From assembly GCA_016182335.1 (NCBI GenBank), contig JACOXK010000058.1, positions 1-32,000 on the forward strand: a stretch of 32,000 bases of DNA, given 5' to 3'. The position numbers were made by a program, and so were the translations under genes. How positions within the stretch are numbered: the first letter of the stretch is position 1; the number at the start of each line of letters is the position of its first letter. The notes under the pieces were generated by a model. The model was given only the letters and a program-made list of their open reading frames with translations, was not told the origin of the DNA and ran no database searches. Positions 9,475 to 26,615 of the stretch are shown here, in pieces. Origin of the DNA: Deltaproteobacteria bacterium (GTDB taxonomy: Bacteria > Bdellovibrionota > JACOXK01).

Positions 9475-9558
9475 GGTTTGATAATTCATTTTATTCTGTT
9501 TTATTTCAGAATTTGAATCTCAAGGCACTTTCAAATACAAATTCACTCTTTTTATTTT

Positions 9559-9647
9559 TCAATGGATGGATTGGTGAAGATCACGAAGGATTCCTTTAAT
9601 CTCATCGTTTTCAGGATCGAATTGAAGGGATGACTCAAATTCTTTGA
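9559..9647 (-). pseudogene. Orphan 3'-end fragment of a TPR gene (left copy of the 89-bp direct repeat)
   Basis: By manual alignment it matches 21544..21632 with 2 mismatches in 89 bp (9601 c vs 21586 t; 9613 a vs 21598 g). It encodes the last 28 codons plus the stop of the TPR protein (...KEFESSLQFDPENDEIKGILRDLHQSIH*). An in-frame TAA lies just upstream and there is no start codon. Confidence 0.85.
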
Positions 9648-9686
9648 AGTCTTTCCCGAATACAATCTCTTAGTAAGGTGTGCTAT

Positions 9687-11324
9687 TCAACGTAGGGTCG
9701 GATGATCCCTAAAAACACCGGGTTGCACCCACAATTGATCGCGCTGAATTTCCTCTAAATTTAACTGACCATTATGAAAAAGTGCTTTGAGACTTGTTAA
9801 AACTGCCTTTTCTGCAGCAACTATCTTCGATGGCGTCACTTTTCGCTTGAAATCTTCTTCAATATGAAGAGCGACATATTCAGCAATTTGAGGAGGAAGT
9901 TTAGAAATAATTAAGTTTTTATAAGCAGAGAGCTTTCCTAGAAGAACAGCGACAATGTCATCTCGTGAAAGTTGGCTTAAAAATAGAGTCAGGTCATTTT
10001 CTTCCAGAAGACTTACAAGATCAAGTGTTATAATGCTTGATTTTAATTTCATGCCAAGCGTTGTATCTGCTTTTAAAATATCGTCTGCAAGTTCGTCGGG
10101 TTTATCATGAGATTCAACTAAATTGATAAGTGCATTAAATCCGGATGTTTCGTACAGATTCAAACTTGTGAGTTGAGCAGCTCGGTGGGCCAAGCGAAAA
10201 CTTAAATACTTAAGCTCATTCCAAGGCAGTGTTTCTATTGTGGCCAGTTCCAAAGCGACTGATTTCTGATCACTATCTTTTAAATTTTTAAACACGTTAC
10301 TTCGTGTTTCAATATCGAGTTGTAAAAGAAGGAGCGCTTGGCATCGAATATCTTCACCTTTAACCAAGTGAGCTATTTTTGTTGGTTCTAAATTTTTAAG
10401 AAAATCAAAATTGGACTCAATAACTTGATTTTCTTTCAGAGACAACAAACTTTCAAGTTCTATTTCATGACGAAACTGTGTTCCTATGCGCTTTACATCG
10501 GATACGCTTAAGTGCTGCATTTTTGAAAACTCAGATGTGAGCTCCTCTGCAGAGTTATTATTAAGAACTCCCTTAAGCTCTGATCGAAGATGAGTAGGAA
10601 GTGTGATAAGGACTTGAAGTGCATGGTGTAAACCCTGCGGCGATGCTGCCCACCGTTTCAACACATTTTTTGCTGTGCTCAGATGAGAAGCAACGAGATC
10701 TGCATAATGCGCTGGGCTTTGAATTGTTAGAGAATCTCCAATCGATATCCCTTGAGGGATTTCCTGATATGAAGGCACGACAGTGGGGGAGGGTTGAGAT
10801 TCGTGTTTTAAAACTGATGGCAAAACTGTTTTTTTCCTTTGACGACGCATAAAATAGAAGATGCCCATAATAGCTGCAAGAGTGGACATAATAAGAAAAA
10901 TCAGTAAAAAATAACCTCTTAAGTTTGAGAATATAGTTGGGTGAGGCACGGCTACAAATGAGTAATTTAAATGAAGTGCTGATTGAAATGGTTGTGCTTG
11001 ATGTTCAATATATTTTTGAAGAAAATCCCTAGTTTTTTGTGGAAGTTTCTCATCAGCCAGAATATTAACATCAATACCAGAAATAACAGTAGATGTTTGT
11101 GCTGCACTACCAGATTCTTCAAATCCAGGTTCCACAATACTACGTTGAACTGTAGTTTTTGAAGAGGATTTGATGAATACATCTAAGCACAGCTGTGGAC
11201 AATGGAGTTTGAATAACTCAAGAATGACAGGTTTCAAAACGCTTTCAGGCGTTTGTCCTGCACTGAACAAAGTCGTCATCGAGAGACTCACTACTAATTG
11301 ACTTAAGAGAATGAGTTTTTTCAT
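9687..11324 (-). CDS. Membrane-anchored FliG-like protein (signal peptide, ~115 aa periplasmic domain, one TM helix, ~380 aa cytoplasmic FliG/MgtE_N-like ARM repeats)
   Basis: 545 aa. It has an N-terminal signal peptide (MKKLILLSQLVVSLSMTTLFSA), a TM helix at aa 138-158 (YFLLIFLIMSTLAAIMGIFYF) and a following RRQRKK stop-transfer. Three FliG-like modules follow. The last one, LSRDDIVAVLLGKLSAYKNLIISKLPPQIAEYVALHIEEDFKRKVTPSKIVAAEKAVLTSLKALFHNGQLNL, resembles the FliG C-terminal torque-helix domain pattern (MSkRaaeml.EDle...v...dve.aq..iv...r.L...GeI). An AAGGTGG RBS precedes it, 13 nt after motB. Confidence 0.6.
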   Translation of the reverse strand: MKKLILLSQLVVSLSMTTLFSAGQTPESVLKPVILELFKLHCPQLCLDVFIKSSSKTTVQRSIVEPGFEESGSAAQTSTVISGIDVNILADEKLPQKTRDFLQKYIEHQAQPFQSALHLNYSFVAVPHPTIFSNLRGYFLLIFLIMSTLAAIMGIFYFMRRQRKKTVLPSVLKHESQPSPTVVPSYQEIPQGISIGDSLTIQSPAHYADLVASHLSTAKNVLKRWAASPQGLHHALQVLITLPTHLRSELKGVLNNNSAEELTSEFSKMQHLSVSDVKRIGTQFRHEIELESLLSLKENQVIESNFDFLKNLEPTKIAHLVKGEDIRCQALLLLQLDIETRSNVFKNLKDSDQKSVALELATIETLPWNELKYLSFRLAHRAAQLTSLNLYETSGFNALINLVESHDKPDELADDILKADTTLGMKLKSSIITLDLVSLLEENDLTLFLSQLSRDDIVAVLLGKLSAYKNLIISKLPPQIAEYVALHIEEDFKRKVTPSKIVAAEKAVLTSLKALFHNGQLNLEEIQRDQLWVQPGVFRDHPTLR

Positions 11325-11337
11325 AGAACCACCTTTT

Positions 11338-11982
11338 TTAATAAATTTTTAACGTTACCCTTCTGTTTATATTTCTGTATTCCTCAGCATCTGCAACTTC
11401 AGCTTTCTCTTCAAGTTTTTTAGGTCTCGTATGGGCAAATCCCCTTAATTGAATTCGATTTTCATCAATGCCGTGAAAACGCAAAAAATTAAGGAACTCC
11501 ATAGCCCTGTAGGCTGACAATTCCCAATTAGATGGAAATTTAAGTGTATGAATGGGTACATTATCTGTATGTCCCTCAACAATAAACGCCCATTTGTGAT
11601 CAATTGTTTTTAACTCCGAAACAAATGTCAAAATATGTGGCTTAGCCTCTTCCAAGAGGGCACTTTCTCCGGATTGAAATAAGAGAGAATGACTAAAATC
11701 AATTTCCAGAGACTCTTGTCCAATGCTTGTTGAAATCTTGGATTCCAAATGATTTGAGATGATAATAGAGTCAATCTGTTTTTTTAAATCGGCCAAAGAA
11801 TATTTAGGTTTTTTTTTGAAGTAATTCGTGAGCGATTCAAACCGATATGTGCTCATCACTGACATGGAGAGGAGAAATGCAAAGAAAACATAGAGATTTG
11901 TGATGAGATCTGAATAAGAAAGCAGCCATGGTGACTCATCATTCCGTGCAAACATGCTGTTTTGTACCAGTTCTTCAAGCAT
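11338..11982 (-). CDS. MotB-like stator subunit (TM plug with conserved Asp plus OmpA-like peptidoglycan-binding domain)
   Basis: 214 aa. The N-terminal SPWLLSYSDLITNLYVFFAFLL matches the MotB TM helix and includes the proton-binding Asp context (Y-S-D-L). The C-terminal OmpA-family motif series is IVEGHTDNVPI, NWELSAYRAMEFLNFL and NRRVTLKI. Its start directly abuts the motA-like stop. Confidence 0.85.
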   Translation of the reverse strand: MLEELVQNSMFARNDESPWLLSYSDLITNLYVFFAFLLSMSVMSTYRFESLTNYFKKKPKYSLADLKKQIDSIIISNHLESKISTSIGQESLEIDFSHSLLFQSGESALLEEAKPHILTFVSELKTIDHKWAFIVEGHTDNVPIHTLKFPSNWELSAYRAMEFLNFLRFHGIDENRIQLRGFAHTRPKKLEEKAEVADAEEYRNINRRVTLKIY

Positions 11983-12804
11983 TTAGATTTCCAAGCGGAT
12001 TGTCGTCGTCCCCATTTTTGGATGCGAAACAATTCGAGAGGAGCTTTCTGTGGCTGTTATGAAAGCAGCAAGATTTTCTTTTAATATCGGTCCATATACC
12101 TGGTTTTTAATAAGCTCTAAAGCTTCAATCATCATGGCATGAGATCTAGATTCCAGTTCCACATGATTGTTCACGTGACGAATGACTGGGAAGTAAAAAG
12201 CATAACTTGCAAGCAATCCGTACAAAGTCGTTAGCAACGCAAGCGCCATGCCAGCCCCAATCTGACTAAAATCGTCCATATTCTGTAACAGTGAAACCAA
12301 TCCTAACACTGTTCCCATCATGCCAAGAGCAGGTGTTATTTTTGACGAAAAATCAAACACCGAGATTTCTTTGAGGTCCTGAAGTCGCTTTGCATGCCAT
12401 TTATTTTTCAAAATACTTTTCAGTTCATCGGCATTATAATTTCCATTAAAAGTATGAATGCCTTCTCTTAAAAAGAGAGGCATATCTTGTGTGGGCGCAG
12501 CGATACGTCCACTTCGCTGATACTCTTTGGAACAATCCACAAGATGAGAAATGAGGCGTTGCTGTGATACTTTTTCAGGAGAAAAAAATACTTTAATGAG
12601 TCGACCCCAGGCCTTTAAAATATCTGAAAGTCCAAAGCTGTAGAGAACAATGAAAATGTGCCCTACAACTACAAATAAGAAGCTTGGTAGGTTAAACAAG
12701 CCTTTATATTCACTCGATCTTGATTGCATGATAAACAACAGGATCCACAAAAAACCGATAAGACCTATAAGGCTTGCGCATTTTCTCACCCACTGATAGT
12801 TCAT
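11983..12804 (-). CDS. MotA-like stator subunit (MotA/TolQ/ExbB proton-channel family, 4-TM MotA topology)
   Basis: 273 aa. Two N-terminal TM helices are followed by a ~100 aa cytoplasmic loop (SGRIAAPTQDMPLFLREGIHTFNGNYNADELKSIL, compare the MotA pattern GllalE...pfl..gl.l.vdg.d.e). TM3/TM4 then carry ITPALGMMGTVLGLVSLL and GAGMALALLTTLYGLLASYAFYFPV. Confidence 0.85.
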   Translation of the reverse strand: MNYQWVRKCASLIGLIGFLWILLFIMQSRSSEYKGLFNLPSFLFVVVGHIFIVLYSFGLSDILKAWGRLIKVFFSPEKVSQQRLISHLVDCSKEYQRSGRIAAPTQDMPLFLREGIHTFNGNYNADELKSILKNKWHAKRLQDLKEISVFDFSSKITPALGMMGTVLGLVSLLQNMDDFSQIGAGMALALLTTLYGLLASYAFYFPVIRHVNNHVELESRSHAMMIEALELIKNQVYGPILKENLAAFITATESSSRIVSHPKMGTTTIRLEI

Positions 12805-13430
12805 GATTTTGTTTTTGGTGAAAGAGTTGTAGGTGAAGACGCAGGGAGGCGAGAAATAGCCTGACGAATAATAGTATTAGCAGGATCTTCTTTAAGAACC
12901 AAAGACCATGATTCTCTGGCTAAATCATACATTCCTACCTTGGATGCAACGGTCCCGCGCAAGGAGAGAAGCTTCGTATCGCTTGGATAGGATTCAACAA
13001 GGGATTCCAATGTTACGAGTGCTAGTTCATAGTCTTTTTTACGAAAATGCTCTTTTACTTTCGCCAAACCTAAGAGATAACTTTGTCTGGCTAAAGATTG
13101 GCCAGATAAGGCAACCACATCTTGACCTTGAATCTGAGAATTGTCGTCACCAGATGATGGTATAGTTTGTAACCCATCAGTGTGAGAACTTTTAAGCTCT
13201 GCAAGAGTGTAGCGCACTAAAGTCGATTCACTATTTTCTCCAAGTGCTATTTCAATAGCATTCAAACCGAAGGACCGGCGAATGGTAATGGGTGATTTCG
13301 ATGACTGAGCTGTGTCTATGGTAAATGGATTGGATATTTCAGGGGAAGAGTGTTTGGAAATTTTGCGCATGGAAGCACATCCAACAATAAGAGACAAACA
13401 GATAATGACAAAAAGTTTTTTTCTATTCAT
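12801..13430 (-). CDS. TPR-repeat lipoprotein
   Basis: 209 aa with the lipobox LSLIVGC-A. The C-terminal half is TPR-like (YELALVTLESLVESYPSDTKLLSLRGTVASKVGMYDLARESWSLVLKEDPAN). A 4-nt ATGA-type overlap with the motA-like gene indicates translational coupling. Confidence 0.7.
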   Translation of the reverse strand: MNRKKLFVIICLSLIVGCASMRKISKHSSPEISNPFTIDTAQSSKSPITIRRSFGLNAIEIALGENSESTLVRYTLAELKSSHTDGLQTIPSSGDDNSQIQGQDVVALSGQSLARQSYLLGLAKVKEHFRKKDYELALVTLESLVESYPSDTKLLSLRGTVASKVGMYDLARESWSLVLKEDPANTIIRQAISRLPASSPTTLSPKTKS

Positions 13431-13433
13431 TGT

Positions 13434-14591
13434 TTACCACCTCATATTGATATTGAATGCAATATCTAAACAAAAACCAGAAACTTTTTTCGATTGTTTA
13501 TCAGACGAAAATTGTATTTGATTGCCAATGAGTTGAATCTTTTCAGAGCTCAGCATGGCATCTGACGGAAATAAGTAATTGATGTTGGCAGAAATTCCAA
13601 ATTTCTTTCCAATATCGAGCAAAAAACCTGGACCTAAAACAAAAGACTGATAGTTGTTTGTAAGAAGTGGGCCGCCGCCTACTGTTATATATTTTCTAAA
13701 TTTTTCTCCGCCCAGATTCATGAGGAGTTTTAACTCAAGAAGCCCCCCAGCATTGAGAAGAATGTCTTTATTGCTGGAATCTGAGAGTGGCTCAGTAAAT
13801 CCAGAGAGAATAATGCCAAAGTGATCAATAAACCCTCCCATGTACTCGAGTAGAGAGAAACTCACACTTGGATAATTCACATGATTTTCAAATCCAGGTA
13901 ATAGGAAAAAACCAGGGCTTACGGCGAGCCGATATTTAGCAAGGATGTTCACCGAGTCCGAAGGCCGTTTTGTGACAGAATCTTGTGATAGCAGCTGTCG
14001 CTCTGGATCGAGCGAAGAATATTTATCGCTCCAAATGACTTCTCCCTTAATAGCATCAAAAATGGCAACGCTCAAAACGATTTCATGTGGGGTATAATGG
14101 AATGTGCTTTCCAGGAAATAGCGAGTTCCCAAACTATGAGAGAGAGATTGCAATTCTTCATTTTTTTGCACACCCTGTTGCACAATAAGGTCATTAGCAT
14201 CCGTTGTGACAAGAGTGCGAAAGCAGCTCATACATTTGATAGATTTAATGGAGACTTTTTCAATGAGGGCCTGATCGATTCTATCTCGAAGAATATCGCG
14301 AAACTTAGGTTGGATATCACCCTGGAGATTGATTTTATACTGGCTTAATTTTTGAATACGTAAGTTTGAACTCGAAAGATCTGTAGCAAATCTCTCAACA
14401 AGAGAGTCCAGTACAGAGTAGAAATCAATTTTTCCATCAAGCGTGCTTGCATATTCCGCATTGACGTGATTTGAAAAAAACACAACACAGTTTAATCCAA
14501 GAAAAATAACGAGAAATCGCAGTAGAACAAAACGATTTTGCAACACAAAACGACCTTCACCCAACGCTAACTTTTTTTGATAAGATGTCAA
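13434..14591 (-). CDS. Secreted two-domain envelope protein, candidate outer-membrane beta-barrel
   Basis: 385 aa. The signal peptide ends HVNA-EY. The N-terminal ~170 aa has the alternating pattern seen in FlgO/CsgG/LpoB-like periplasmic modules (...LGTRYFLESTFHYTPHEIVLSVAIFDAIKGEVIWS). The C-terminal half is Gly/aromatic-rich with amphipathic strands and ends ...IAFNINMRW, an aromatic terminus typical of OMPs. The family assignment is inference. Confidence 0.45.
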   Translation of the reverse strand: MTSYQKKLALGEGRFVLQNRFVLLRFLVIFLGLNCVVFFSNHVNAEYASTLDGKIDFYSVLDSLVERFATDLSSSNLRIQKLSQYKINLQGDIQPKFRDILRDRIDQALIEKVSIKSIKCMSCFRTLVTTDANDLIVQQGVQKNEELQSLSHSLGTRYFLESTFHYTPHEIVLSVAIFDAIKGEVIWSDKYSSLDPERQLLSQDSVTKRPSDSVNILAKYRLAVSPGFFLLPGFENHVNYPSVSFSLLEYMGGFIDHFGIILSGFTEPLSDSSNKDILLNAGGLLELKLLMNLGGEKFRKYITVGGGPLLTNNYQSFVLGPGFLLDIGKKFGISANINYLFPSDAMLSSEKIQLIGNQIQFSSDKQSKKVSGFCLDIAFNINMRW

Positions 14592-14598
14592 CTTTCAT

Positions 14599-15639
14599 TC
14601 AGGGTAACAGTATGTGATAGCGGATATCCACTTGGTCACCAGCAGCCACATGAGACCTTTTGAGGAAAAACAACTCCTGTGTTGACTCGTTATAATGCCA
14701 CTCACTTGGGTTTGCTTTAAGACCATTAAGATAAACCTCAATAGAACCGCGTTGTGCAGCATAGGTTAAAACTTTACGAGTCATATGCTCAAAAAGTATT
14801 TGTATTATTTTATTTATGACTTGTTTTGAATCTTGCAAGAGATCACACAATTCAAGACTTATGCCAGAAGTTTGACTTACAAATTCAGCAAGAGTTGTTG
14901 CTCGTCGATACTCCAAGTTATTGCATTGATCACTTCCCTCTTTGAAAATGAGGGCAATAGGTTGGAACAGTGCTTTTGATTTTAATGTCTGCATAGAGGC
15001 TACAATGTGATCGACTGGAGTTGTTCCTTCGTCATCCGCGTTAGATATAAAAATTGGAAAGAAATGGGTATTTCCTTCTCGAAGGAATCCGCTTTTCATG
15101 AGGGTTACCAACTTCTCAAGTGGGAAATTTGATGCTTCTCCCCCAGTAAAGTTTAAAGCTCCAAGAGTTTCTGATAATTTATTGAGTCCACTCACCGTGA
15201 AAGCGTTATTCGCAAAAATATCCTCTCCCCATGGAGTACTATCATGGGATGTTATCAACCGAAGTTTGAAAGAAAGCTTTGGTCGAAGATGGTGATATTC
15301 TGGAGGGTCCATGAGAGAGGCTAAGAGAAGATGACTTGATTCTTTGAGGGCTTGAATAAAAGGTGACATTTTTTTCTTGGCATGAAGAATAAATGCTATA
15401 TCAAGGTTTCCCTGTGGCACTTCGTGAATGAAACCATCCAACCACAGCTGTGGCAGGGATGTGGCGGGAGGTTCTAATAATGGGGGATTGTCAGGTTCGT
15501 AATGTGGGCTAACAGGCGCAGGTAACGGTTTCTCTTTTTGCTTAGGTGCAATAAATTCAGGAGCTCCACAATGAAGAAAGAGTGTTGCCACAAGAAGGGA
15601 TATAAATTTATGGATTTTGAGGATCTTGTTTGACACCAT
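14599..15639 (-). CDS. Secreted vWA-like paralog with a degenerate MIDAS (possible non-canonical lipoprotein)
   Basis: The ORF is open to 15777, but that extension overlaps the upstream gene by 170 nt. The internal ATG at 15639 gives the signal peptide MVSNKILKIHKFISLLVATLFLHCG. The position equivalent to the vWA MIDAS reads LDIAFILHAKKKM, so the DxSxS is lost. The C-terminal motif IEVYLNGLKANPSEWHYNESTQELFFLK..AAGDQVDIRY is shared with the two neighbouring vWA lipoproteins. Confidence 0.55.
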   Translation of the reverse strand: MVSNKILKIHKFISLLVATLFLHCGAPEFIAPKQKEKPLPAPVSPHYEPDNPPLLEPPATSLPQLWLDGFIHEVPQGNLDIAFILHAKKKMSPFIQALKESSHLLLASLMDPPEYHHLRPKLSFKLRLITSHDSTPWGEDIFANNAFTVSGLNKLSETLGALNFTGGEASNFPLEKLVTLMKSGFLREGNTHFFPIFISNADDEGTTPVDHIVASMQTLKSKALFQPIALIFKEGSDQCNNLEYRRATTLAEFVSQTSGISLELCDLLQDSKQVINKIIQILFEHMTRKVLTYAAQRGSIEVYLNGLKANPSEWHYNESTQELFFLKRSHVAAGDQVDIRYHILLP

Positions 15640-16846
15640 ACAACACTGTAATTTTTCCACCTTGCGGCACTTTGGGTTTGTTCGTAAGGATGATTTCATT
15701 TTTTTGAGTATCATAAGTAAAGTCACGTCCCATAAGCAGTGGATAATAATTATAAAGAACTTTAAAAGACTTGCCATCGAAAGTATGGGGAATTTTTTTA
15801 AGAATAATTCTTTTTGTGTAGGATAAAGAGAGTTGTGCTACATCACTCAATGTATTCTTTTTCAAAAGCTCACATAAATCCAGTCGATGTCCATAGAAAT
15901 GTTGGTGACTGAGTTGTTCTAATTTATCTGATGTCTTGGTTAAACTGTAAGGACAAGTCTGAATATTCATGCGAAATAGCGCTGTAAATACGCTTAAGTA
16001 CGGTGGTCTATAAATTTTATGAATTTGTGACAAAAAATGAGAGGTTGCTATGTCATGAGAAAGCTCGTCCGAACTTATGAAGAAAAATACACTGAGCGCA
16101 TCTTCCTCTCGAAAATCGGCAGAGTTATGTAATAACTCCAGTGTTTTAGAATAAGAAAGAATATGAGGTTGGCCTTGATATCCAAGCTGTGACATGAATT
16201 GAGGAAAGACGGCAAAATCTCGTGCCGTACTTATAAAGTTTTTCCCACTCACAGAAATGAGACGTGCTTCATCAGAAGGCATGAATCCTATCTTATATTG
16301 AAGATGAGAGAGATTGTTTGATAAAAATTCTGGAGCAAATTTTGTGCTTGCTAAGACAAGATCAGAGTGAATGTCTTCCATAGGTTCCGAGGTATCAACG
16401 ACAAAAAGTATTGAGAGTTTTCCAGAAGGAAGGCCGTAATAAAAATCTTCCTCATAAAGTTGAAAATCTGGAGGAGTTGGCCCACCAGGTTGTGTAGGAT
16501 CTGGAAGAGGAATGGGCACTGGATCAGGATTGCCTCCTCCCCCGCCCCCTGGAGTTCCACCTTCACCGGGATTGGTACCTGGTGCGCTCCCCCCTCCTGA
16601 ACCGCCATTAGGAGGAGATCCCGGAGTGCCACCGCCTCCTGGGTTGGTGTCAGGTGAACCATTACTATCTCCACCAGAACCAGCGTCTGGAGGGACAATT
16701 TTTCCATCCGGTGTTTTATTTTCAACATAGAGATTAAAGACTCGGCGAGAGCTTGAACCGCAAGATAAATTGAAAACTAACGGTGCAACAATGGCTAATG
16801 GAACTATTACTGACTTCACGGTTGAAGGTAACCTTAAGTCATTCAT
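15608..16846 (-). CDS. vWA-domain lipoprotein with a Gly/Pro-rich low-complexity linker
   Basis: 412 aa with the lipobox VFNLSC-G. A ~75 aa G/P/N/S/T-rich linker spans aa 52-127. The vWA-like core follows, with LSILFVVDTSEPMEDI as a partly degenerate MIDAS (DxSxP) and a later FFFISSDE. The C-terminal beta-domain is FKVLYNYYPLLMGRDFTYDTQKNEIILTNKPKVPQGGKITVLY. Confidence 0.7.
   Translation of the reverse strand: MNDLRLPSTVKSVIVPLAIVAPLVFNLSCGSSSRRVFNLYVENKTPDGKIVPPDAGSGGDSNGSPDTNPGGGGTPGSPPNGGSGGGSAPGTNPGEGGTPGGGGGGNPDPVPIPLPDPTQPGGPTPPDFQLYEEDFYYGLPSGKLSILFVVDTSEPMEDIHSDLVLASTKFAPEFLSNNLSHLQYKIGFMPSDEARLISVSGKNFISTARDFAVFPQFMSQLGYQGQPHILSYSKTLELLHNSADFREEDALSVFFFISSDELSHDIATSHFLSQIHKIYRPPYLSVFTALFRMNIQTCPYSLTKTSDKLEQLSHQHFYGHRLDLCELLKKNTLSDVAQLSLSYTKRIILKKIPHTFDGKSFKVLYNYYPLLMGRDFTYDTQKNEIILTNKPKVPQGGKITVLYGVKQDPQNP
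16466..16693 (-). repeat. Low-complexity Gly/Pro-rich coding tract inside the 412-aa lipoprotein gene
   Basis: It encodes DAGSGGDSNGSPDTNPGGGGTPGSPPNGGSGGGSAPGTNPGEGGTPGGGGGGNPDPVPIPLPDPTQPGGPTPPD, with iterated units of the type TNPG-GGG-TPG. It also creates spurious ORFs in other frames and on the other strand. Confidence 0.8.
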
Positions 16847-16899
16847 TCAGGTAATTTTATTACAAAAGCTCTTCGTATCATTGTCAAATAATTGGAGCT

Positions 16900-18012
16900 T
16901 TGTTAGATCATAATATAATTAGGTATCGTTGTTCAGTGAAAAAAATTATCATTTTAGTTGCTTTTGCATCTCTGACATCGTGCGAAAAAACGGGTCTTAA
17001 GTACGAAACTTCTTTAGAGGATGATCCTTCACGTATTGTTTTTGTTGATCCTCGAATTATTTCCTCCCATAAACCTCCATGGATGCAACCGTATAGACGC
17101 GTCATTGAGCGTGATACTGCGCCTGTAAATCAACCGCCTTCGCGCGGAATTTTTACTAACGTGGTGGATAAGTATGAGAAGAAAAAAAATCATGAAGAGG
17201 CTGATATTTTATGGGTTATTGATAATTCGTGCAGCATGGCTGAAGAACGTGACAAAGTTTCACAAAATCTCGATGCTTTTATGAGGGACTTTAAATTGAG
17301 TCATGTTGATTTTCATATGGGTGTTATTTCAACACACACCCATGATGCTCTTTTTTATGGAGCCCCACCCGTGCTTCTTTCAAATGATCCAGAATTAGAG
17401 CGCAGATTTTCAGAACGTGTTCGGATGCCGCAAGTATGCGGTTTTTCTGCTGCTTTGCATGCTGCCCATTTGGCGCTGAGCGAGCCGCGAATTTCTGGAT
17501 ATAACAAAGATTTTTTACGATCAGAAGCGCATCTCATTATTATTATCATTTCTGACGCAGATGAAGACTATAAAATGAGCAGCTCTGAATATCTTAGTTT
17601 TTTCCAGTCACTTAAAGCAAGTGAACCGCATAAAGTCGTCATTAACTCCATCGTTGGAGATTCTCCGAGTGGTTGTTCATCTGCTGGCGGGAATGCAGAA
17701 CCTGGGTTGCAATACATTGAATTAACACAAAGTACTCGAGGTTTTTTTGAAATCATTTGCAGTAACAACTTTAAAGAAAGCATGAACAATATTGGCCGTA
17801 ATCTCGATAAATATATCAACTCTTATCCACTGACTCATATTCCTTCAATTCGATATCCTCTTGTTGTTACAATCAATGGTCGTGTCGTGGAGCGACACCC
17901 AATACATGGCTGGGTGTACAATGCCGAACTCAATCTTATTTTATTTGAGGGAGATATTAAACCTATTGTTGGAGATAAAATTGAAATCGCTTACCTTCAT
18001 GAAGAAAATTAG
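16900..18012 (+). CDS. vWA-domain lipoprotein with an intact MIDAS motif
   Basis: The ORF starts at TTG 16900. The in-frame GTG at 16936 gives the clean lipoprotein signal MKKIIILVAFASLTSC-E and is probably the real start. The vWA core is ADILWVIDNSCSMAEERDKVSQNLDAFM (DxSxS intact) with a later LIIIIISDADED. The C-terminal beta-domain is LVVTINGRVVERHPIHGWVYNAELNLILFEGDIKPIVGDKIEIAY. Confidence 0.8.
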   Translation: MLDHNIIRYRCSVKKIIILVAFASLTSCEKTGLKYETSLEDDPSRIVFVDPRIISSHKPPWMQPYRRVIERDTAPVNQPPSRGIFTNVVDKYEKKKNHEEADILWVIDNSCSMAEERDKVSQNLDAFMRDFKLSHVDFHMGVISTHTHDALFYGAPPVLLSNDPELERRFSERVRMPQVCGFSAALHAAHLALSEPRISGYNKDFLRSEAHLIIIIISDADEDYKMSSSEYLSFFQSLKASEPHKVVINSIVGDSPSGCSSAGGNAEPGLQYIELTQSTRGFFEIICSNNFKESMNNIGRNLDKYINSYPLTHIPSIRYPLVVTINGRVVERHPIHGWVYNAELNLILFEGDIKPIVGDKIEIAYLHEEN

Positions 18013-19033
18013 TCTTCTTATAAGCTTATTTCTAGTGGGCTTGACCTCTCAAGGATTAGCACTGGTTTGGTGGGGCGAAGAAATAACCTCACTTAAATAC
18101 ATTATGCCCATCCAATATTTTGTACGAAATGAAGATGTTTTTTACATGGGGCTTCAAAACTTTGGTATTGATCGTGTCATTTACAATAATTACAAACTTT
18201 CTCGTGATAAAGTTTTTAGATTCTCTGGTATCATGGACCCTTCTGTGAAATTAAACTTCCTTCTTAAAGGCGATATGCTCATAGTTGGAGGCATTTACGA
18301 CGGTTTTTTAGCACTCGATACAAAATCGGATTATCCATCACCCACTTCAAAGAGACATGATCTTGTTTTTAAGCCCAATGAAAATACAATTGTTTATTCT
18401 TCTCTTCTCAAATCCCTCTTATGGAAAGGTCAACTTGTACTTCTTACGGCTGATCAGGTTATTCTGGGTAGTCTGCAGAACCCACTTAAGTTTAACGTCA
18501 ATGCGAGCGTTGGTTTAGCGCCAAATTATCCTTTGCAACCCAATGATTGGAAAGAATTTTGGGCTACCGATATGGCGCTCTATGGCAATTATTTGTACGT
18601 TCTTCTTGCGCATGAGAAAACTCCGCAGATTGCATACCTTAACCTTTCACAGCCACTGGAAAGTCTTAAAGTAAATTATGTTCCCCTCAATGTTTCAGAA
18701 TATTATCTTAAATCCTTAGCGGTTAGTGATAGTAGATTATATATAACTCAGAATAAGACACTTCATAGTTTTGTCATTGATGAAGAAGGCATGCCGACCG
18801 TGGAGTGGTCGCATACCCAGAAGCACTTCATAGAAACTGTAACTACGTTTTCGATGGGTATTATTCTCTCGTTCTTTGAGGCTGGACTTGCGTTCTTTGA
18901 AAATCAAGACCTTACAAAAGAACAGGCCATTATTTTTCCTCCAAAAACTTGGGAGCAGGTTGAGGTTGTGGATAATCTTTTGTTTGGTTCAGCAGGAGAA
19001 GATGGTTTTTATGTATATCAAAAATATAATTAA
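17999..19033 (+). CDS. Secreted beta-propeller-like protein (LVIVD-like repeats)
   Basis: The ORF is open from 17861. The ATG at 17999 gives the signal peptide MKKISLLISLFLVGLTSQGLA and overlaps the upstream stop by 14 nt. It has recurrent blade-like motifs: GDMLIVGGIYDGFLALDTKSDYPSP, LYGNYLYVLLAHEKTPQIAYLNLSQP, VSDSRLYITQNKTLHSFVIDEEGMP and LLFGSAGEDGFYVY. The family call is by pattern only. Confidence 0.5.
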   Translation: MKKISLLISLFLVGLTSQGLALVWWGEEITSLKYIMPIQYFVRNEDVFYMGLQNFGIDRVIYNNYKLSRDKVFRFSGIMDPSVKLNFLLKGDMLIVGGIYDGFLALDTKSDYPSPTSKRHDLVFKPNENTIVYSSLLKSLLWKGQLVLLTADQVILGSLQNPLKFNVNASVGLAPNYPLQPNDWKEFWATDMALYGNYLYVLLAHEKTPQIAYLNLSQPLESLKVNYVPLNVSEYYLKSLAVSDSRLYITQNKTLHSFVIDEEGMPTVEWSHTQKHFIETVTTFSMGIILSFFEAGLAFFENQDLTKEQAIIFPPKTWEQVEVVDNLLFGSAGEDGFYVYQKYN

Positions 19034-19667
19034 GACATTGATATTTTTCTCTTTGTGGGGATGGACTGGAACTATCTTGGGTGAGTCGCCTTCGCAAAGC
19101 ACTTGGCTGGATTACGAAATCCGTCTTAAAGCCGTGTACAACCAAAAATATGAGCACCATCATCGACATGAGCTCTCCACTTTTTCATCACTGTATTTTA
19201 GAAATGATCTTAATTTATCATATGGTTTTGGAGCTGATTATGCCTATCATTTCACTCCTACTTTAAGTTGGGAAGCGGCTCATTTTCTTTACTTAAATCA
19301 AGTTGAGACAATACTGCGCCAGGATATAAGAAATAAAACAGGTTTGATACCGGATGTAGAAGAAAATGAATTCTTTGTTACTTCTTCAATCATGTTTCAT
19401 CCTGCGTACGGCAAATTGGCTTTCTTTGGAAGGCACATTGCGTATTTTGATCTCTATGTTGTTGCGGGTGGAGGCATTCGAAAACTCTTGAACCTTTCTC
19501 AACTTAAATCTGCTTTTTCGTTTGGTGCAGGTTTCAGATGCTATCTGAGTCACAAACTTACTCTCAAGATTGATGCCAGAGACATGTTGTTTCAGGAAGA
19601 ACATCAATCCGGTGCATCTATTATTCATTCTTTTACACCTGTTTTAGGATTGAGTTTACTTCTATGA
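19002..19667 (+). CDS. Outer-membrane beta-barrel protein (myxobacterial-type OMP domain, GltA/GltB-like)
   Basis: The ORF is open from 18876. ATG 19002 or 19011 gives the signal peptide (M)YIKNIIKTLIFFSLWGWTGTILG, and GGAGAAG lies just upstream. The sequence has alternating amphipathic strands and the motif HPAYGKLAFFGRHIAYFDLYVVAGGGI, which I recognise from the OMP_myx_plus-type beta-barrel family. Confidence 0.6.
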   Translation: MVFMYIKNIIKTLIFFSLWGWTGTILGESPSQSTWLDYEIRLKAVYNQKYEHHHRHELSTFSSLYFRNDLNLSYGFGADYAYHFTPTLSWEAAHFLYLNQVETILRQDIRNKTGLIPDVEENEFFVTSSIMFHPAYGKLAFFGRHIAYFDLYVVAGGGIRKLLNLSQLKSAFSFGAGFRCYLSHKLTLKIDARDMLFQEEHQSGASIIHSFTPVLGLSLLL

Positions 19668-20734
19668 AGTTAAAACTCTGTGTCATTACATATTTCATAT
19701 TTACTTTTGCCAATGCAGACTTTCCCCGAATGGCGGATGCATGGCGTGCCTATGCTAACCAAGATTACATTCAATCTTTGCAACAGTTGTACAGGGTCCG
19801 CAGCATTGCTCAAGAAAGAGTGCTTGCTGAAACCTTTTATTTGGAAGGACTTTTGGCTTACCGATTGGGTTATAGTTTGAGGTTGGCAGCCATTTATCAG
19901 ACTTATGAAGTGCAGTTCATGCATAAGCTCTCTTCATTGCCAAATAATATAAAAAAAGATGTTTGCTTGTATTGGGTGAGGCTCTCAAGTCTTCTAGCAG
20001 ATGTTTATAAAAGTATGCTGGTGGTACAATCTGTAGAATTGTTCCAGTCTTTGTCTTCGACTGAAAGTGCACTTCGCACGCCTTCTGGATCTGGGGCTTA
20101 CACGTGGCCTCTGATACTAGCTACTGAGAAAGAAGTACAGGAGGTATGGTTGGATGAATTGGGTGCTGATACCATAATCACTATTTCTGAAAAGAAAGAA
20201 AAGGGGGAGAGTCTTACTCCTGAAATTATTTTTGTTCGTTTAAGCGATGCAGTTTCACGCTCTCTTGTTTTTTATGAACAAAAAATTCTAGAGAAGGATT
20301 TTTTTTATAATCGCCTGCGTTTGCTCTTTTTAGATTATAAATTGGATAGAGGAGAAGGAGGAGAGGAGTTTTTGGTTGTATCTCAAAAAGCTTATCTGAA
20401 ACTCTATGGAGAAAGTCGGTTTTCAATGCTCCAGTCACTCATTCAACTTCGGCTGAGTAGAATCAACTCTAAACTTAAGACATTAAGGGCCATGAGTTTT
20501 AAGAAAAGTGTTACTGCAGTGACAAGCCAAAACTACAAAACTGATCAACCCAATATAGAGCATGTTATTGTTCTAGGCATGATTGAAACAAAGCCTATTC
20601 GCAAGGAAGCAGTGAGGCAAGGGGTGTCTTCTTTTTTCTCGGCTGATCCTGTACCCTATATACCTGGTGCCGGTCCGGAGAGTTGGAATGAGAAAATTGC
20701 AGAGTCCATCCATGACAAAAAAATCTCAGATTGA
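19664..20734 (+). CDS. Secreted hypothetical protein (helical, TPR-like N-terminus)
   Basis: 356 aa with the signal peptide MKLKLCVITYFIFTFANA. An ATGA start/stop overlap with the upstream OMP gene indicates coupling. I recognise no family. The N-terminal AWRAYANQDYIQSLQQLYRV...FYLEGLLAYRLG looks TPR-like. Confidence 0.5.
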   Translation: MKLKLCVITYFIFTFANADFPRMADAWRAYANQDYIQSLQQLYRVRSIAQERVLAETFYLEGLLAYRLGYSLRLAAIYQTYEVQFMHKLSSLPNNIKKDVCLYWVRLSSLLADVYKSMLVVQSVELFQSLSSTESALRTPSGSGAYTWPLILATEKEVQEVWLDELGADTIITISEKKEKGESLTPEIIFVRLSDAVSRSLVFYEQKILEKDFFYNRLRLLFLDYKLDRGEGGEEFLVVSQKAYLKLYGESRFSMLQSLIQLRLSRINSKLKTLRAMSFKKSVTAVTSQNYKTDQPNIEHVIVLGMIETKPIRKEAVRQGVSSFFSADPVPYIPGAGPESWNEKIAESIHDKKISD

Positions 20735-21539
20735 GTTTCGGCTGCTTGTCTTCAACAAGTCTTCTCTGATTAAAAAACTATCTTTTCGAACGGAAGAACT
20801 CATTCTTGGTTCGATAGCTCAATCTCAGGTTAATTTAACTAAGGCAGATGGTACTGTTCTTTTAGAAGGTAGATTCTACTGGAAGTCGAGGTACGTTCTG
20901 ATTTTTGAAAAACACTTCATGCAATCAGAAGAAATACAAGCAACTTTACTCCAGAATCACAATGCAAGTGCTGCCACGTTTGAGTATCAGAATGATGAGA
21001 TGGTAATACAGGTGAGATCTTTGCTCATAGGAGAACCGCCTGATTCTCTGTCAATACGACCTACCTTCACTCAAAATCTGTCTGTTCCAACGATAAAAAA
21101 ACAAGTTCATAAATCAGTATTTGTGACTGCAATGATAGTTCTTGTTGTGCAACTGAGCTTAATAGTAAAACTCAATGAGCGCAAAAACGTGAGATTAGAG
21201 GGGCATGAACAACAAATCTCTAAAGTTTTAGCCCCCACGGTCAACAAACCGTTCATGCCACGTATCCCAGGGCCTAAGCATTATGAAAAAATTATCTTAA
21301 AGAACAAAAAGGATATCGAGTTTTGTCAGAAAAACTTCGATTTTGAGGATGGCCCCGTTCAGTTCAAAGTGCTTATTAATCCTATGGGTGGAGTCTTTTC
21401 TGTCGATGTTTTGTCTTCCACACTTGGTGTGGAAATAATGGAGTGCTTGAATGCGAGAATTAAATCATGGTTGTTTCCCCCTATTGAAAATATTTCAAAA
21501 ACATTATTTTTTGCTGTGAATTTTAAAAAGGAATCTTGA
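20712..21539 (+). CDS. Single-pass membrane protein with a TonB-C / AgmX-PglI-type periplasmic C-terminal domain (GltG/GltJ-like)
   Basis: The ORF is open from 20667. The ATG at 20712 (MTKKSQIEF...) overlaps the upstream gene by 23 nt. The TM helix is VFVTAMIVLVVQLSLIV. The C-terminus, CQKNFDFEDGPVQFKVLINPMGGVFSVDVLSSTLGVEIMECLNARIKSWLFPP, fits the AgmX/PglI C-terminal (TonB_C-like) pattern C...G.v.v.f.I...G.v..v.v.sstl.....eC....i..w.FP. The cytoplasmic N-terminus is only weakly FHA-like. Confidence 0.6.
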   Translation: MTKKSQIEFRLLVFNKSSLIKKLSFRTEELILGSIAQSQVNLTKADGTVLLEGRFYWKSRYVLIFEKHFMQSEEIQATLLQNHNASAATFEYQNDEMVIQVRSLLIGEPPDSLSIRPTFTQNLSVPTIKKQVHKSVFVTAMIVLVVQLSLIVKLNERKNVRLEGHEQQISKVLAPTVNKPFMPRIPGPKHYEKIILKNKKDIEFCQKNFDFEDGPVQFKVLINPMGGVFSVDVLSSTLGVEIMECLNARIKSWLFPPIENISKTLFFAVNFKKES

Positions 21540-21543
21540 CCAT

Positions 21544-21632
21544 TCAATGGATGGATTGGTGAAGATCACGAAGGATTCCTTTAATTTCATCGTTTTCGGG
21601 ATCGAATTGAAGGGATGACTCAAATTCTTTGA
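21544..21632 (-). repeat. Right copy of the 89-bp direct repeat (authentic 3' end of the TPR gene)
   Basis: It matches 9559..9647 at an offset of 11,985 bp with 2 mismatches. Both mismatches fall at third codon positions and are synonymous in the TPR reading frame. Confidence 0.9.
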
Positions 21633-22041
21633 TGGCTTGATTGAGCCAACCCTTTTCGAAATAAATTCTTCCTAAATTAATATGGGGGTAGTGCCTGTAG
21701 GCGTACCTCTTCGATAGTTTTGCCATTTCAAGCCAAGCCATAGCTTCATCCATTTTTCCAAGCCTCATAAGATAGGAGCCTATATCATTGTAGGGATTCC
21801 CAAAATCTGGATCAATAGCAATGGCTTTTTTGCATAATTCAATGGCTTCGCTCAGTTGCTCTTTCATAGACAGCATCCAACCCCAGTAGGTATAGGCCTC
21901 TGGAGTTGGTTCATGACCAATGGATTGTTTGAAACATGAAATCGCAGAATCAATATCTTTTTGGGCCGCATAAGAGCAACCGCTATCCACAAGTTGCAGT
22001 GCCAAGAGAAGCTTCTTATCTAAAATCTTTCTCTCATTCAC
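21544..22041 (-). CDS. TPR-repeat protein (165 aa)
   Basis: It has several TPR units (AISCFKQSIGHEPTPEAYTYWGWMLSMKEQLSEAIELCKKAIAIDPDFGNPYNDIGSYLMRLGKMDEAMAWLEMA...). It starts 3 nt after the S8 protease stop, so it is probably co-transcribed with it. Confidence 0.8.
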   Translation of the reverse strand: MNERKILDKKLLLALQLVDSGCSYAAQKDIDSAISCFKQSIGHEPTPEAYTYWGWMLSMKEQLSEAIELCKKAIAIDPDFGNPYNDIGSYLMRLGKMDEAMAWLEMAKLSKRYAYRHYPHINLGRIYFEKGWLNQAIKEFESSLQFDPENDEIKGILRDLHQSIH

Positions 22042-22044
22042 TTC

Positions 22045-23778
22045 CTATTCCACATATCCATAGCTATCGATATCAAATCCATACGTTGAAACGATTTGAT
22101 CTGCTGCAAGCACAATTTCGATTGTATCTCCATCGACTTCATAGGTCCAAAAAGGCGTTTGAACCCCATCGTAGAAGTCTTCAACTTCCCCTTTCGCATT
22201 TTTAATATAAACAAAATCATATCCCGTTTCAGTTTCAAACTTACTAAAATGAACTCTCATTTTTTTTGCACCCGAATGAGTGATTTTATAGGTATATTCT
22301 TTACTATTGTCGTAATCGTGGGGAGTTGAAATGAGGTGCGTTACATTCTTAAAAAGACTTGGATCGGTAGGGGTACTTTTGGGTGCTTCAAAGTTTGTGA
22401 GTGCATAAAACGCATTGGCTCTTCCATGAGAAATTTTTCTTCGAAGAATTTTAATCTCTTCGGAAGATGTATAAAGTATTTTTTTCAAATCCTGCATTGC
22501 AAGATTCGGATGAGAAGACAGAAGAAGTGCAATCATCCCAGAAATATGCGGCGTGGCCATAGACGTTCCGCTCATGTAACCATAATTGTTCCCAGGTATC
22601 GAACTATAGATAGAAACCCCAGGAGCTGCAATATCGACAGTTGTTTTTCCGTAATTTGAAAATTTTGCTAGCTGATCTTGATTATCCGTTGCTGCAACTG
22701 AGATGACATTCTCAAATTCGTAATTGGAAGGATAGTGAGGGACGACATCGTTATTACCTGCATCATTTCCAGCGGCGGCCACAAAATAAATGCCAGCATC
22801 GGATGCAGACTTGATAGCATCAGCAAGGGCTTGTGAAAATCCCCCCCCACCCCAGCTATTGCTCATCACGTGAACTCCTAAAGTATGCGCATATTCAATA
22901 GCCTTGACTGCATCTTCAAGGGTGCCGGAGCCTCCTGAGCTTAAAAATTTTACTGGGATAAGAGATACACGCCAGGTTACTCCTAGTATACCCACTTCAT
23001 TATTCCCATATGCGCCAATTGTTCCAGCTACGTGGGTTCCATGGCTGTGGTCATCCATGGCGTCATTGGAATTTGAAACAAAATTCCAACCCCTGACGTC
23101 ATCAATAAATCCATTACCATCATTATCAATTCCATCAGTTTCTTTAAAGGCCTGTGCACCTTTATCGTTCGTATATTCGCCTAATTCACCAGGATTTTGA
23201 TATATATTGTTGACTAAGTCTTCATGAGTATAATCGATACCTGTGTCGATGACTGCAACTTTAATTGCTCGACTTCCTATTTCCTGGGTCCAAGCTTGAA
23301 GGGCATCGATATCACTCCCGGGTTTTCCTATTTGGCCGCTTACATCCGTCTGTCCGACATTGTTTAGACCCCAGTTTTTTTCAAACTCAGGGTCTGAAAT
23401 CATGGTTGATTGATCGATTCCCATGATTTGTCTCACTCTGCGTGGAGAGAATGAGGACATATCAATTGAATAAATATAGTTAGGTTCTGCATATTCTACC
23501 TGAGGAAGGTTTCGAATCTTATTTAAAAGAGAGTTGAGTGAGATTTGAGGAGAAAACTTGAGGATGAATAAGTTGAGTTTGAGACTTACCGTTGCAATTT
23601 CCCTAAAACTAAATGCCTTCAGATGGTCTACTGTTGCGCCAGGCTTGAGTTTAACAATGACTTCACCTGGAACATATTTAATTTTGGGTTCCGCCTTCTT
23701 AGAATGGGTTTGGGACTGATAAACCCCCATTCCAATGGCAAAGCTGAGGAATACAACTGCACATAACAACTTTTTCAT
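22045..23778 (-). CDS. Secreted subtilisin-family (S8) serine protease with an I9-like propeptide and a CUB-like C-terminal domain
   Basis: The catalytic triad contexts are VAVIDTGIDYTHEDL (Asp), HGTHVAGTIGA (His) and GTSMATPHISG (Ser). The start at 23778 (MKKLLCAVVFLSFAIG) is preceded by GGGGGAG and a 6-nt spacer; the ORF track extends to 23820. The C-terminal ~110 aa (YTYKITHSGAKKMRVHFSKFETETGYDFVYIKNAKGE...) resembles the CUB signature F..F.lE...yDyv.i. Confidence 0.9.
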   Translation of the reverse strand: MKKLLCAVVFLSFAIGMGVYQSQTHSKKAEPKIKYVPGEVIVKLKPGATVDHLKAFSFREIATVSLKLNLFILKFSPQISLNSLLNKIRNLPQVEYAEPNYIYSIDMSSFSPRRVRQIMGIDQSTMISDPEFEKNWGLNNVGQTDVSGQIGKPGSDIDALQAWTQEIGSRAIKVAVIDTGIDYTHEDLVNNIYQNPGELGEYTNDKGAQAFKETDGIDNDGNGFIDDVRGWNFVSNSNDAMDDHSHGTHVAGTIGAYGNNEVGILGVTWRVSLIPVKFLSSGGSGTLEDAVKAIEYAHTLGVHVMSNSWGGGGFSQALADAIKSASDAGIYFVAAAGNDAGNNDVVPHYPSNYEFENVISVAATDNQDQLAKFSNYGKTTVDIAAPGVSIYSSIPGNNYGYMSGTSMATPHISGMIALLLSSHPNLAMQDLKKILYTSSEEIKILRRKISHGRANAFYALTNFEAPKSTPTDPSLFKNVTHLISTPHDYDNSKEYTYKITHSGAKKMRVHFSKFETETGYDFVYIKNAKGEVEDFYDGVQTPFWTYEVDGDTIEIVLAADQIVSTYGFDIDSYGYVE

Positions 23779-25389: not shown

Positions 25390-25394
25390 ATTTT

Positions 25395-26606: not shown

Positions 26607-26615
26607 AGTGGCCTC

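Follow-up and report, generated by a model that had tools for sequence, protein, structure and literature searches.

Flagellar-type stators and FliG are usually taken as hallmarks of the flagellum, and in the motors of Campylobacter, Vibrio and spirochaetes tetratricopeptide repeat (TPR) and TolB-N-like proteins act as periplasmic scaffolds of the stator. In a recent survey, every stator that combines a plug with a torque-generating domain falls in a 'flagellar' clade (PMC12505986), and the role of rotor proteins in non-motile genomes has been raised as a question (PMC12199754). A natural FliF-FliG fusion occurs in Chlamydia (bioRxiv 10.1101/023564), and engineered FliF-FliG fusions form rings (PMC6079021, PMC11481574). 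Here we describe 12 tightly packed envelope genes, in two divergent arms, at positions 9687-21539 of a 32,000-nt stretch of contig JACOXK010000058.1 (GCA_016182335.1; hereafter the window, whose positions serve as coordinates), from a metagenome-assembled genome (MAG) labelled 'Deltaproteobacteria bacterium'. Five of them (9687-14591, hereafter the module) encode a FliG-like fusion protein, a MotA/MotB stator pair, a TPR lipoprotein and an outer-membrane barrel protein (protein X), and we give a probability of about 0.5 to the reading that these form a flagellum-independent, envelope-spanning rotor-stator machine driven by the proton-motive force (PMF), here wired to adhesin and Glt-like parts. 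The parts are of known kinds, those of rotor-stator and 5:2-motor envelope machines, and the combination is not a known one. An earlier note on this DNA had not recognised it as a described system, and none was found in the literature searched, which (subscription journals being little covered) holds no description of a FliG/FliF-like fusion working with MotAB outside the flagellum.

The stator pair and the FliG-like fusion protein

The stator genes lie on the minus strand, with the MotA/PomA-type A subunit (273 aa) at 11983-12804 and the MotB-type B subunit (214 aa) at 11338-11982, both assigned from Pfam, NCBIfam and PDB matches. The A subunit scores 67.8 bits with Pfam MotA_ExbB, and its NCBIfam scores are 118 bits (PomA), 101 (MotA) and 100 (MotP), and only 18.9 for TolQ. 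In the PDB its best alignment is with Vibrio PomA (residues 9-232, E 4e-25), the next matches being the MotA proteins of Bacillus, Clostridium and Campylobacter, and no ExbB or TolQ chain is matched at E<=1. Four transmembrane (TM) helices and a full cytoplasmic domain are present, and the channel prolines of MotA are conserved in the module. The B subunit carries a plug (MotB_plug, 40.3 bits, cut-off 24) and an OmpA domain (42.3 bits); its best NCBIfam matches are MotD/MotB/MotS, and its best PDB matches MotB, MotS and PomB. The channel Asp lies within the TM helix motif SYSDLITNL and is kept in every module MotB. A full cytoplasmic domain, a plug and an OmpA-type anchor are the features by which 'FIT' stators have been defined (PMC12505986), and since all three are found here the pair is, by its sequence, a flagellar-type (PomA/MotA) stator and not one of the TolQ/ExbB kind. 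This bears out the earlier note, which had seen a true MotA/MotB stator with a peptidoglycan anchor, and the hidden Markov model (HMM) comparison with TolQR/ExbBD that it had proposed falls on the flagellar side.

The anti-phage system Zorya was considered for this pair and rejected, because only a generic ZorB similarity (62 bits, below the 117 bits of MotB) and a 14-bit ZorA match were found, and the other genes had no PADLOC match. In several Elusimicrobia modules MotB is extended to 310-400 aa (L004 14575-15570, L009 12945-14147 and L011 12872-13804; L numbers denote the loci compared), and in L004 there is a weak TPR match beyond the OmpA domain.

The proposed partner of the stator is a 545-aa protein (9687-11324, minus strand; HYS98_03190 in the public record), a candidate rotor identified with Pfam, AlphaFold2 (AF2) and Foldseek. 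FliG_C (40.5 bits), FliG_M (31.8) and FliG_N (32.2) all match above their Pfam cut-offs, within residues ~314-523; with the flagellar FliG equivalog TIGR00207 the score is 34.7 bits against a cut-off of 226.7. An AF2 model from a 40-sequence alignment (mean predicted local distance difference test, pLDDT, 84) has a signal peptide, a periplasmic domain (26-124), a TM helix (131-165), a disordered linker (166-201) and a helical FliG-like part (204-531). When this model is compared with the PDB by Foldseek, full-length FliG tops the list, with Aquifex 3hjl (E 5.7e-9) followed by Salmonella C-ring FliG (8wiw, 8umx, 8vib), and since the alignments run over 308-330 columns, all of FliG N, M and C is represented in the cytoplasmic part. 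The periplasmic domain has an alpha-beta-beta-alpha-beta topology (helix 26-41, strands 46-60 and 76-91, helix 96-109, strand 116-124), and Foldseek finds weak matches (E 0.05-0.26) to PrgK (2y9j_Y) and to the RBM3/S-ring of FliF (8z4g, 8z5v, 6sd1, 7bk0). Because of this ring-building motif (RBM) topology and these weak PrgK and FliF RBM3 matches, the protein would not be a FliG merely with an added anchor; as modelled, it resembles a one-polypeptide FliF-FliG rotor, in which the C-terminal half of FliF is fused to FliG. That the 545-aa protein is FliG-like, as first proposed, is thus upheld by both the Pfam domains and the fold. The description 'membrane-anchored FliG-like' falls short, the protein being an RBM-like domain, a TM helix and a full FliG in one chain. 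A Bat operon was also tried and rejected, the sole signal being a 12.9-bit BatA match on the TM helix of this protein; no MoxR or DUF58 gene is present in the window.

When 1.84 billion cluster representatives were searched exhaustively with HMMER, only three close relatives of the 545-aa protein (P0002, P0003 and a fragment) came up, along with 126 matches below 1e-10. Most of these matches are proteins of 580-990 aa that begin with a signal peptide and a periplasmic region and, beyond a lone TM helix, end in FliG_M/FliG_C. Canonical FliGs of ~340 aa score below these fusion-type relatives, and the fusion family comprises more than 100 clusters at 50% identity. Members of class I (~600 aa) carry a periplasmic domain with LPGLP and RGD-x-V-x4-FP motifs; when these domains are scanned alone, 18 of 20 match Pfam YscJ_FliF_C, always at the C-terminal end (best E 7e-6). 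In class II (720-990 aa) a domain with a CxxxC motif occurs twice in tandem, and the window clade has a single, homologous copy of it, with C42 and C46 in the window protein; the motif suggests a disulfide or a metal site in the periplasmic domains of both groups. Public records name the family 'hypothetical protein' or 'FliG C-terminal domain-containing protein', and a metagenome scan for the FliG-like clade of the window found no relatives. Directly upstream of class II FliG-like genes that lack adjacent MotAB there is a DsbA/thioredoxin-like gene (L006 203-1210, L047 8922-9902, L048 1436-2416).

The rotor-stator interface was compared by aligning module MotA with PomA and the module FliG-like proteins with Thermotoga FliG, the residue numbers for FliG R281 and D288/D289 being those of E. 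coli. Most module pairs have a basic residue at the MotA R90/PomA K89 position together with an acidic residue at FliG D288, and Glu-Glu or Glu at the MotA E98/PomA E96-97 position together with Arg at FliG R281. In the window clade (the window, L001 and L002) the R281 equivalent is Gln and the E98 equivalent Pro-Thr or Ser-Thr; the basic MotA residue is kept, as is an acidic cluster (EED, EDD or DPE) two residues downstream on the torque helix. The joint loss of the R281/E98-equivalent pair is a single evolutionary event and fits a direct interface, the point being suggestive and not statistical. The FliM-binding EHPQR motif is replaced by GEDIR in the window and by DEPxG in relatives, which fits the absence of FliM/N.

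Protein X (385 aa; 13434-14591, minus strand) has a signal peptide, a periplasmic alpha/beta domain of TolB-N/LpoB-like type (~57-192) and an 8-stranded outer-membrane barrel (~220-385) that ends in W, an aromatic last residue being usual in outer-membrane barrels. Its AF2 model is of modest confidence (pLDDT 64, shallow alignment). The N-domain finds the LpoB C-domain (E 7.6e-6; target-normalised TM-score, TMt, 0.67) and the TolB N-domain in Foldseek, where the flagellar H-ring protein FlgT is also listed (E 4.6e-3) without assignment to a domain, and the barrel finds 8-stranded Ail, OmpW, NspA and OmpA. These domain matches, together with the aromatic C-terminus, support the two-domain beta-barrel candidate that had been put forward. 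No Pfam or NCBIfam family matches protein X; every other module locus, across phyla, encodes a protein of 354-402 aa with which it can be aligned, and its HMM matches L049_342 (E 1.8e-22). The TPR lipoprotein (12801-13430, minus strand; lipobox LIVGC) is assigned from its Pfam matches, which are all weak TPR ones, and from the position of its orthologues, which hold the same place in L002, L007, L008 and L049; TPR genes stand there in all other module loci.

The five-gene module and its neighbours in the window clade

The genes for the FliG-like protein, protein X, the TPR protein, MotA and MotB stand side by side in 12 loci, arranged in one of three orders. The order FliG-like, X, TPR, MotA, MotB is that of L004, L007, L008 and L009-L014 (class I); X, TPR, FliG-like, MotA, MotB is seen in L049/L050 (class II, the TPR protein being a lipoprotein); and X, TPR, MotA, MotB, FliG-like in the window and L002. 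Hosts are Elusimicrobia (L004), Elusimicrobia/Endomicrobiales (L009-L012) and Fibrobacterales (L013-L014) MAGs, the other loci being on metagenomic contigs, and a genome scan with a narrow FliG-like alignment gave 7 loci. The flanks of the module elsewhere are unrelated housekeeping genes, and no vWA (von Willebrand factor A) or Glt genes lie by it in any lineage examined outside the window clade. Because the same five genes recur in three orders amid unrelated flanks, there is strong evidence that they are one functional unit, and on these comparisons the module is old and self-contained. FliM/N, export-gate and rod/hook genes are absent from the window, and no flagellar gene lies near the module in the neighbourhoods of ~15 loci; the earlier note had likewise reported no FliM/N, export-gate, rod, hook or filament genes. 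Its 12-gene machine does not survive as stated, since the five-gene module stands alone across phyla and the seven vWA/Glt-like genes join it in the window clade only.

A few neighbours of the module in single loci may be recorded. Type IV pilus/type II secretion system (T2SS)-like genes (PilB/MshEN, PilT, PilC, PilX_N; pilMNOPQ) adjoin it in L004 (16090-21334) and L011 (2518-6674), on different sides, and also adjoin the orphan class II FliG-like gene of L006 (5147-11180); this linkage was treated as incidental, with 3 loci having it and 12 others lacking it. In L049, the class II module locus, the gene after MotB (9495-10523) encodes a protein with an SH3_3/SH3_4 domain, and a GAF-GGDEF diguanylate cyclase gene is convergent to the module end in L011 (13814-14836; Elusimicrobia UBA5214).

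In the window the module adjoins seven further genes. Three encode vWA-type proteins, none of which matches Pfam VWA. vWA2 (14599-15639, minus strand; likely start ATG 15639) is a vWA-like paralogue without a MIDAS (metal ion-dependent adhesion site) motif, recognised by its paralogy to vWA1 and vWA3 orthologues (BLAST E 1e-4 to 1e-5), and has orthologues in L001 (46% identity) and L002. vWA1 (15608-16846, minus strand), a vWA-like lipoprotein with a long Gly/Pro-rich linker that was identified from its sequence and paralogy, has a degenerate MIDAS (DTSEP) and orthologues in L001 and L002 that are ~40% identical. vWA3, a vWA/MIDAS lipoprotein on the plus strand (16900/16936-18012; lipobox LTSC), has an intact MIDAS motif, DNSCS...T...D (DxSxS...T...D), which is invariant in three orthologues, and a weak match to NF052240, 'MIDAS family adhesin' (E 2.2e-10, 40 bits, cut-off 700), the model of a Bdellovibrio MIDAS-adhesin family (PMC11003981). 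The earlier assignment of all three as vWA proteins is thus carried by the motif, the weak adhesin match and paralogy, and goes without Pfam support. Elsewhere, a vWA3-type MIDAS domain is found C-terminally in larger proteins (~530-1385 aa) in unrelated contexts (L018, L019, L021, L023, L024, L025, L027, L036), and L021 has tandem genes with this domain.

The rest of the plus arm encodes envelope proteins. A secreted protein of ~344 aa (17999-19033), described as beta-propeller-like in the earlier note and recognised here by its signal peptide, has orthologues in L001 and L002 (41-45% identical) and no family match. The outer-membrane beta-barrel (~19002-19667; a 263-aa open reading frame, ORF) is of the OMP_myx_plus type that had been suggested for it, scoring 99.5 bits with TIGR04565, whose cut-off is 60 (the L001 orthologue scores 114); this is the model to which we take GltA and GltB to belong. 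A secreted helical protein (19664-20734) has 356 aa in the window and 526-563 aa, with a YbgF-like TPR region, in L001 (7727-9690) and L002 (10234-12056), where a small gene of 81-95 aa that is absent from the window follows it; by this comparison, the shorter form looks like a deletion in the window lineage. The last gene (20712-21539) encodes a single-pass inner-membrane protein whose periplasmic C-terminal domain is TonB-C-like and of AgmX/PglI (GltG/GltJ) type, as proposed before, at scores below the cut-offs: 25.6 bits for NF033768 (AgmX/PglI; cut-off 40) and 25.2 for GltG. The L001 orthologue reaches 38.4 bits with NF033768 against the same cut-off of 40 and also matches GltG and GltJ. 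No FHA domain was detected in this GltG/J-like protein.

No AglRQS, TolQ/ExbB-type or GltD/E-like gene lies in the 32-kb window, in agreement with the earlier statement that AglQ/S-type subunits are missing. Of the Glt-like outer-membrane and adhesin parts then proposed, the GltA/B-type barrel and, below threshold, the GltG/J domain are found, and AglRQS, GltD and GltE are absent. Because this Glt core (aglRQS, gltD, gltE, as Luciano et al., PMC3169522, delimit it) is not in the window, the vWA/Glt-like arm is not a Glt machine; in sequence it resembles a fragment of the Glt outer-membrane and transducer parts joined by adhesins.

Conservation in relatives, another check that had been proposed, was found: all 12 genes recur in L002 (GCA_964507905.1) and at least eight on the incomplete contig of L001, with FliG-like proteins 36-40% identical to that of the window. 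Compared with the window, both loci have the five genes turned round, as a separate operon that converges on vWA2-vWA1, and the adjacency is kept; in the window itself, module and vWA1/vWA2 run in one direction, 7 nt apart. The distant MIDAS relatives found in 31 metagenomic loci, none with other cluster genes, say nothing on linkage. On the gene maps, the association of the module with the vWA/Glt-like genes is real but specific to the window clade, at three loci.

The ORF map agrees with the earlier description of 12 genes in two divergent arms with coupled junctions. The junctions in the run 9687-14591 measure 13, 0, -4 (ATGA), 3 and 7 nt, and the remaining ones are short overlaps of 14-32 nt given the likely starts, ATG 15639 of vWA2 giving a 32-nt overlap with the gene upstream. 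A signal peptide, a lipobox or TM helices are present in all 12 products, where nearly every product had been claimed. The divergent region between the arms (16847-16935) measures 53 bp, as first reported, from the TTG start of vWA3 at 16900, and 89 bp from GTG 16936; the latter start is the more plausible, because a clean, textbook lipoprotein signal (MKKIIILVAFASLTSC) results from it. Promoter-like matches in this gap were no commoner than in shuffled sequence, and a terminator scan likewise did no better.

Both flanks are ordinary chromosome in a window of ~39% G+C. Upstream there are genes for Lon, propionyl-CoA carboxylase subunits and methylmalonyl-CoA mutase, and downstream those for a TPR protein, an S8 subtilase and a glycosyltransferase and the division and cell wall (dcw) cluster (ftsZ, ftsA, ftsQ, ddl, murB, murC). 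The 165-aa multi-TPR protein and the 591-aa subtilase, whose prodomain is fervidolysin-like and whose C-terminal domain is CUB-like, come directly after the cluster (21544-23820, minus strand). The dcw cluster (24286-31914) is ~3 kb from the 12 genes, and the other module loci have no such neighbourhood.

Proposed mechanism and rival explanations

A flagellum-independent rotor-stator machine built from these parts would work as follows. MotA5B2-type stators, held on peptidoglycan by the OmpA domain, would conduct protons via the MotB Asp channel, and the cytoplasmic MotA domains would push the C-terminal torque helix of the FliG-like part. The 545-aa protein would assemble into a one-polypeptide MS-ring/FliG-ring in the inner membrane, which the stators would turn or step using the proton gradient; its ring-building-type periplasmic domain would allow such an assembly. 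The TPR lipoprotein and protein X would serve as stator scaffold or as output link to the outer membrane. In the window lineage the motor would be coupled, perhaps via the GltG/J-like protein and the OMP_myx_plus barrel, to the MIDAS lipoprotein adhesins, and would probably move, expose or load surface adhesins, for gliding-like motility or adhesion. What the analysis shows are the domain identities, the folds, the linkage of the genes in different phyla and the conserved channel and interface residues; ring assembly, rotation, the coupling to the adhesin arm and the cellular output are steps that we infer.

Several observations weigh against such a machine. All NCBIfam flagellar equivalog scores are far under cut-off (e.g. 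PomA 118 vs 341), and because the stator misses every one by a wide margin it must be called divergent. On the rotor side, the FliF/PrgK matches of the window protein reach only E 0.05-0.26 in Foldseek, its periplasmic domain of ~100 residues has no significant sequence match to FliF, YscJ_FliF_C included, and a profile of the class I periplasmic domains found nothing among PDB sequences. One canonical charge pair is missing in the window clade, and the EHPQR motif of FliG is not kept. Some class II FliG-like genes (two loci) are without adjacent MotAB, and no gene for a rod, axle or filament-like output is present in the module. The link to the vWA/Glt-like genes, moreover, is seen in three related loci, the module elsewhere being without these genes.

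Two other explanations, neither of them likely, take up part of this evidence. The module could be an energy transducer like Tol-Pal or TonB, with the FliG-like protein as the single-pass counterpart of TolA, TonB or GltG, no ring and no continuous rotation; the energy would then reach the TPR protein and the TolB-N-like barrel and serve to tether the outer membrane, keep the envelope intact or drive gating, a use to which we likewise give a low probability. Its parts do parallel Tol-Pal (a 5:2 motor, a TolB-N-like fold, weak YbgF/CpoB-like TPR matches, an OmpA-type anchor), there is no axle or filament gene, and in most phyla the module stands alone amid housekeeping genes. Yet the stator is of flagellar type, with a plug and a torque-generating cytoplasmic domain, and not TolQR-like; its partner is a complete FliG fold, with the torque-helix charges kept in most members, and the periplasmic domains are probably of the ring-building/FliF_C type, which normally form rings. 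It is also conceivable, though improbable, that the five-gene module and the seven vWA/Glt-like genes are independent and that a 12-gene machine is an artefact of adjacency. The module is without vWA/Glt genes in every other lineage examined and is an operon of its own, convergent with the vWA pair, in L001 and L002, and the MIDAS relatives of the 31 metagenomic loci are without other cluster genes; against this, the adjacency has been kept in three loci diverged to 36-40% identity, and through an inversion, the window module is co-directional with vWA1/vWA2 across 7 nt, and the Glt-like arm has no motor of its own, there being no AglRQS/TolQR in the window.

The preferred reading, a rotor-stator machine independent of the flagellum, has also to be set against two flagellar explanations. 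The genes could supply accessory parts (an extra stator, a FliG paralogue, scaffolds) to a true flagellum encoded elsewhere, as TPR and TolB-N-like proteins are textbook stator scaffolds in known motors and weak FlcA and FlgT similarities are seen here. However, an exported and anchored FliG-like protein cannot sit in a C-ring under FliF, the FliM-binding EHPQR motif is absent, the ~15 loci have no flagellar gene near the module, and the module occurs in Fibrobacterales and Endomicrobiales MAGs. These two orders are generally described as non-flagellated. The genes could equally be pictured as the decaying relic of a lost flagellum, without present function, since flagellar remnants are known in non-motile lineages (PMC12199754); but five intact, tightly coupled genes have been conserved across phyla and through three rearrangements, and with them the channel residues (MotB Asp, MotA prolines) and, in most members, the charges of the interface; no frameshifts or relaxed selection are seen across the family. 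The FliG-like protein spans the membrane and lacks the FliM motif, and the module is conserved in non-flagellar contexts; the accessory explanation is therefore very unlikely and the relic the least probable of all.

A broader proposal may be made tentatively, with clearly less confidence than the rotor-stator machine itself. The module may be a free-standing rotary motor outside the flagellum, in which a one-polypeptide FliF-type/FliG ring is turned by MotAB and linked to the outer membrane through the TPR lipoprotein and protein X, and which might be widespread in uncultured diderms. Its hosts would then, as tentatively, be uncultured Elusimicrobiota, Fibrobacterota and other diderms, and in the window lineage it might drive MIDAS adhesins and Glt-like parts. 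If this is true, the motor would be either a surviving relative of a pre-flagellar rotor-stator pair or a radically reduced flagellum re-used for envelope or surface work. It would represent a new use of the rotor-stator interface, without export apparatus or filament, and a tractable minimal system for studying the origin of torque generation apart from type III secretion; it would also give surface machinery of the Glt-like or adhesin kind a second source of power, other than TolQR.

Comparison with described systems

The periplasmic scaffolds of known flagellar motors (PflA/PflB, FlcA and FlgT/FlgO/FlgP) share with this locus TPR and TolB-N-like proteins that are encoded with, and probably placed around, MotB; they decorate a complete flagellar basal body, whereas none is encoded here at the locus. 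Tol-Pal has in common a 5:2 motor, a TolB-N-like fold, a YbgF-like TPR protein, an OmpA-type peptidoglycan binder and a compact operon amid housekeeping genes. Here, by contrast, the stator is flagellar-type, the transducer is FliG-like and not TolA, and TolB-N is fused to a barrel and not to a beta-propeller. Membership in Tol-Pal was rejected on the scores (TolQ 18.9 bits vs 221, Pal 19.9 vs 125), the fold of the TolB N-domain alone being shared.

The Agl-Glt machinery of Myxococcus and Bdellovibrio (Luciano 2011, PMC3169522; Islam 2023, PMC9946355) shares with the window an OMP_myx_plus barrel, TPR proteins, a PMF-driven 5:2 motor and an envelope-spanning set of parts; its AgmX/PglI-type TonB-C protein and its vWA/MIDAS outer-membrane lipoprotein adhesin have candidate counterparts in the window. 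Its motor is the TolQR-like AglRQS, whereas MotAB and a FliG-like protein stand here, and nothing corresponds to its GltD, E, F, H, I, K and AglZ. GltG/GltJ-type proteins combine an FHA or ZnR/GYF domain with a TM helix and an AgmX/PglI C-terminal domain, the FHA domain being that of GltG (PMC3169522), whereas here the GltG/J similarity is that of a sub-threshold C-terminal domain. The chlamydial FliF-FliG fusion (Bergeron 2016, bioRxiv 10.1101/023564 / PMC4768692) likewise joins RBM-type domains, a TM segment and a FliG-like part, in an organism without a flagellum. It differs in keeping both FliF TM helices and having a FliG_M-like region only; it is thought to act with a type III secretion system (T3SS) and has no dedicated MotAB, TPR or barrel partners.

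The flagellar rotor-stator core differs in more respects. Flagellar FliG is soluble and docks on the FliF C-terminus, whereas the 545-aa protein is exported and membrane-anchored; here a single chain unites the FliF-like and FliG parts; it starts with a cleavable signal peptide, crosses the membrane by one TM helix, has one or at most two small periplasmic domains and lacks EHPQR. FliM/N, export gate, rod, hook and filament genes are missing from the loci, where the operon encodes a TPR lipoprotein and an outer-membrane barrel as partners. What is shared with that core is the stator, with its plug, channel Asp and OmpA anchor, the full FliG N/M/C fold, the torque-helix and MotA charges in most family members, and, putatively, the FliF_C-like or RBM-like periplasmic domains.

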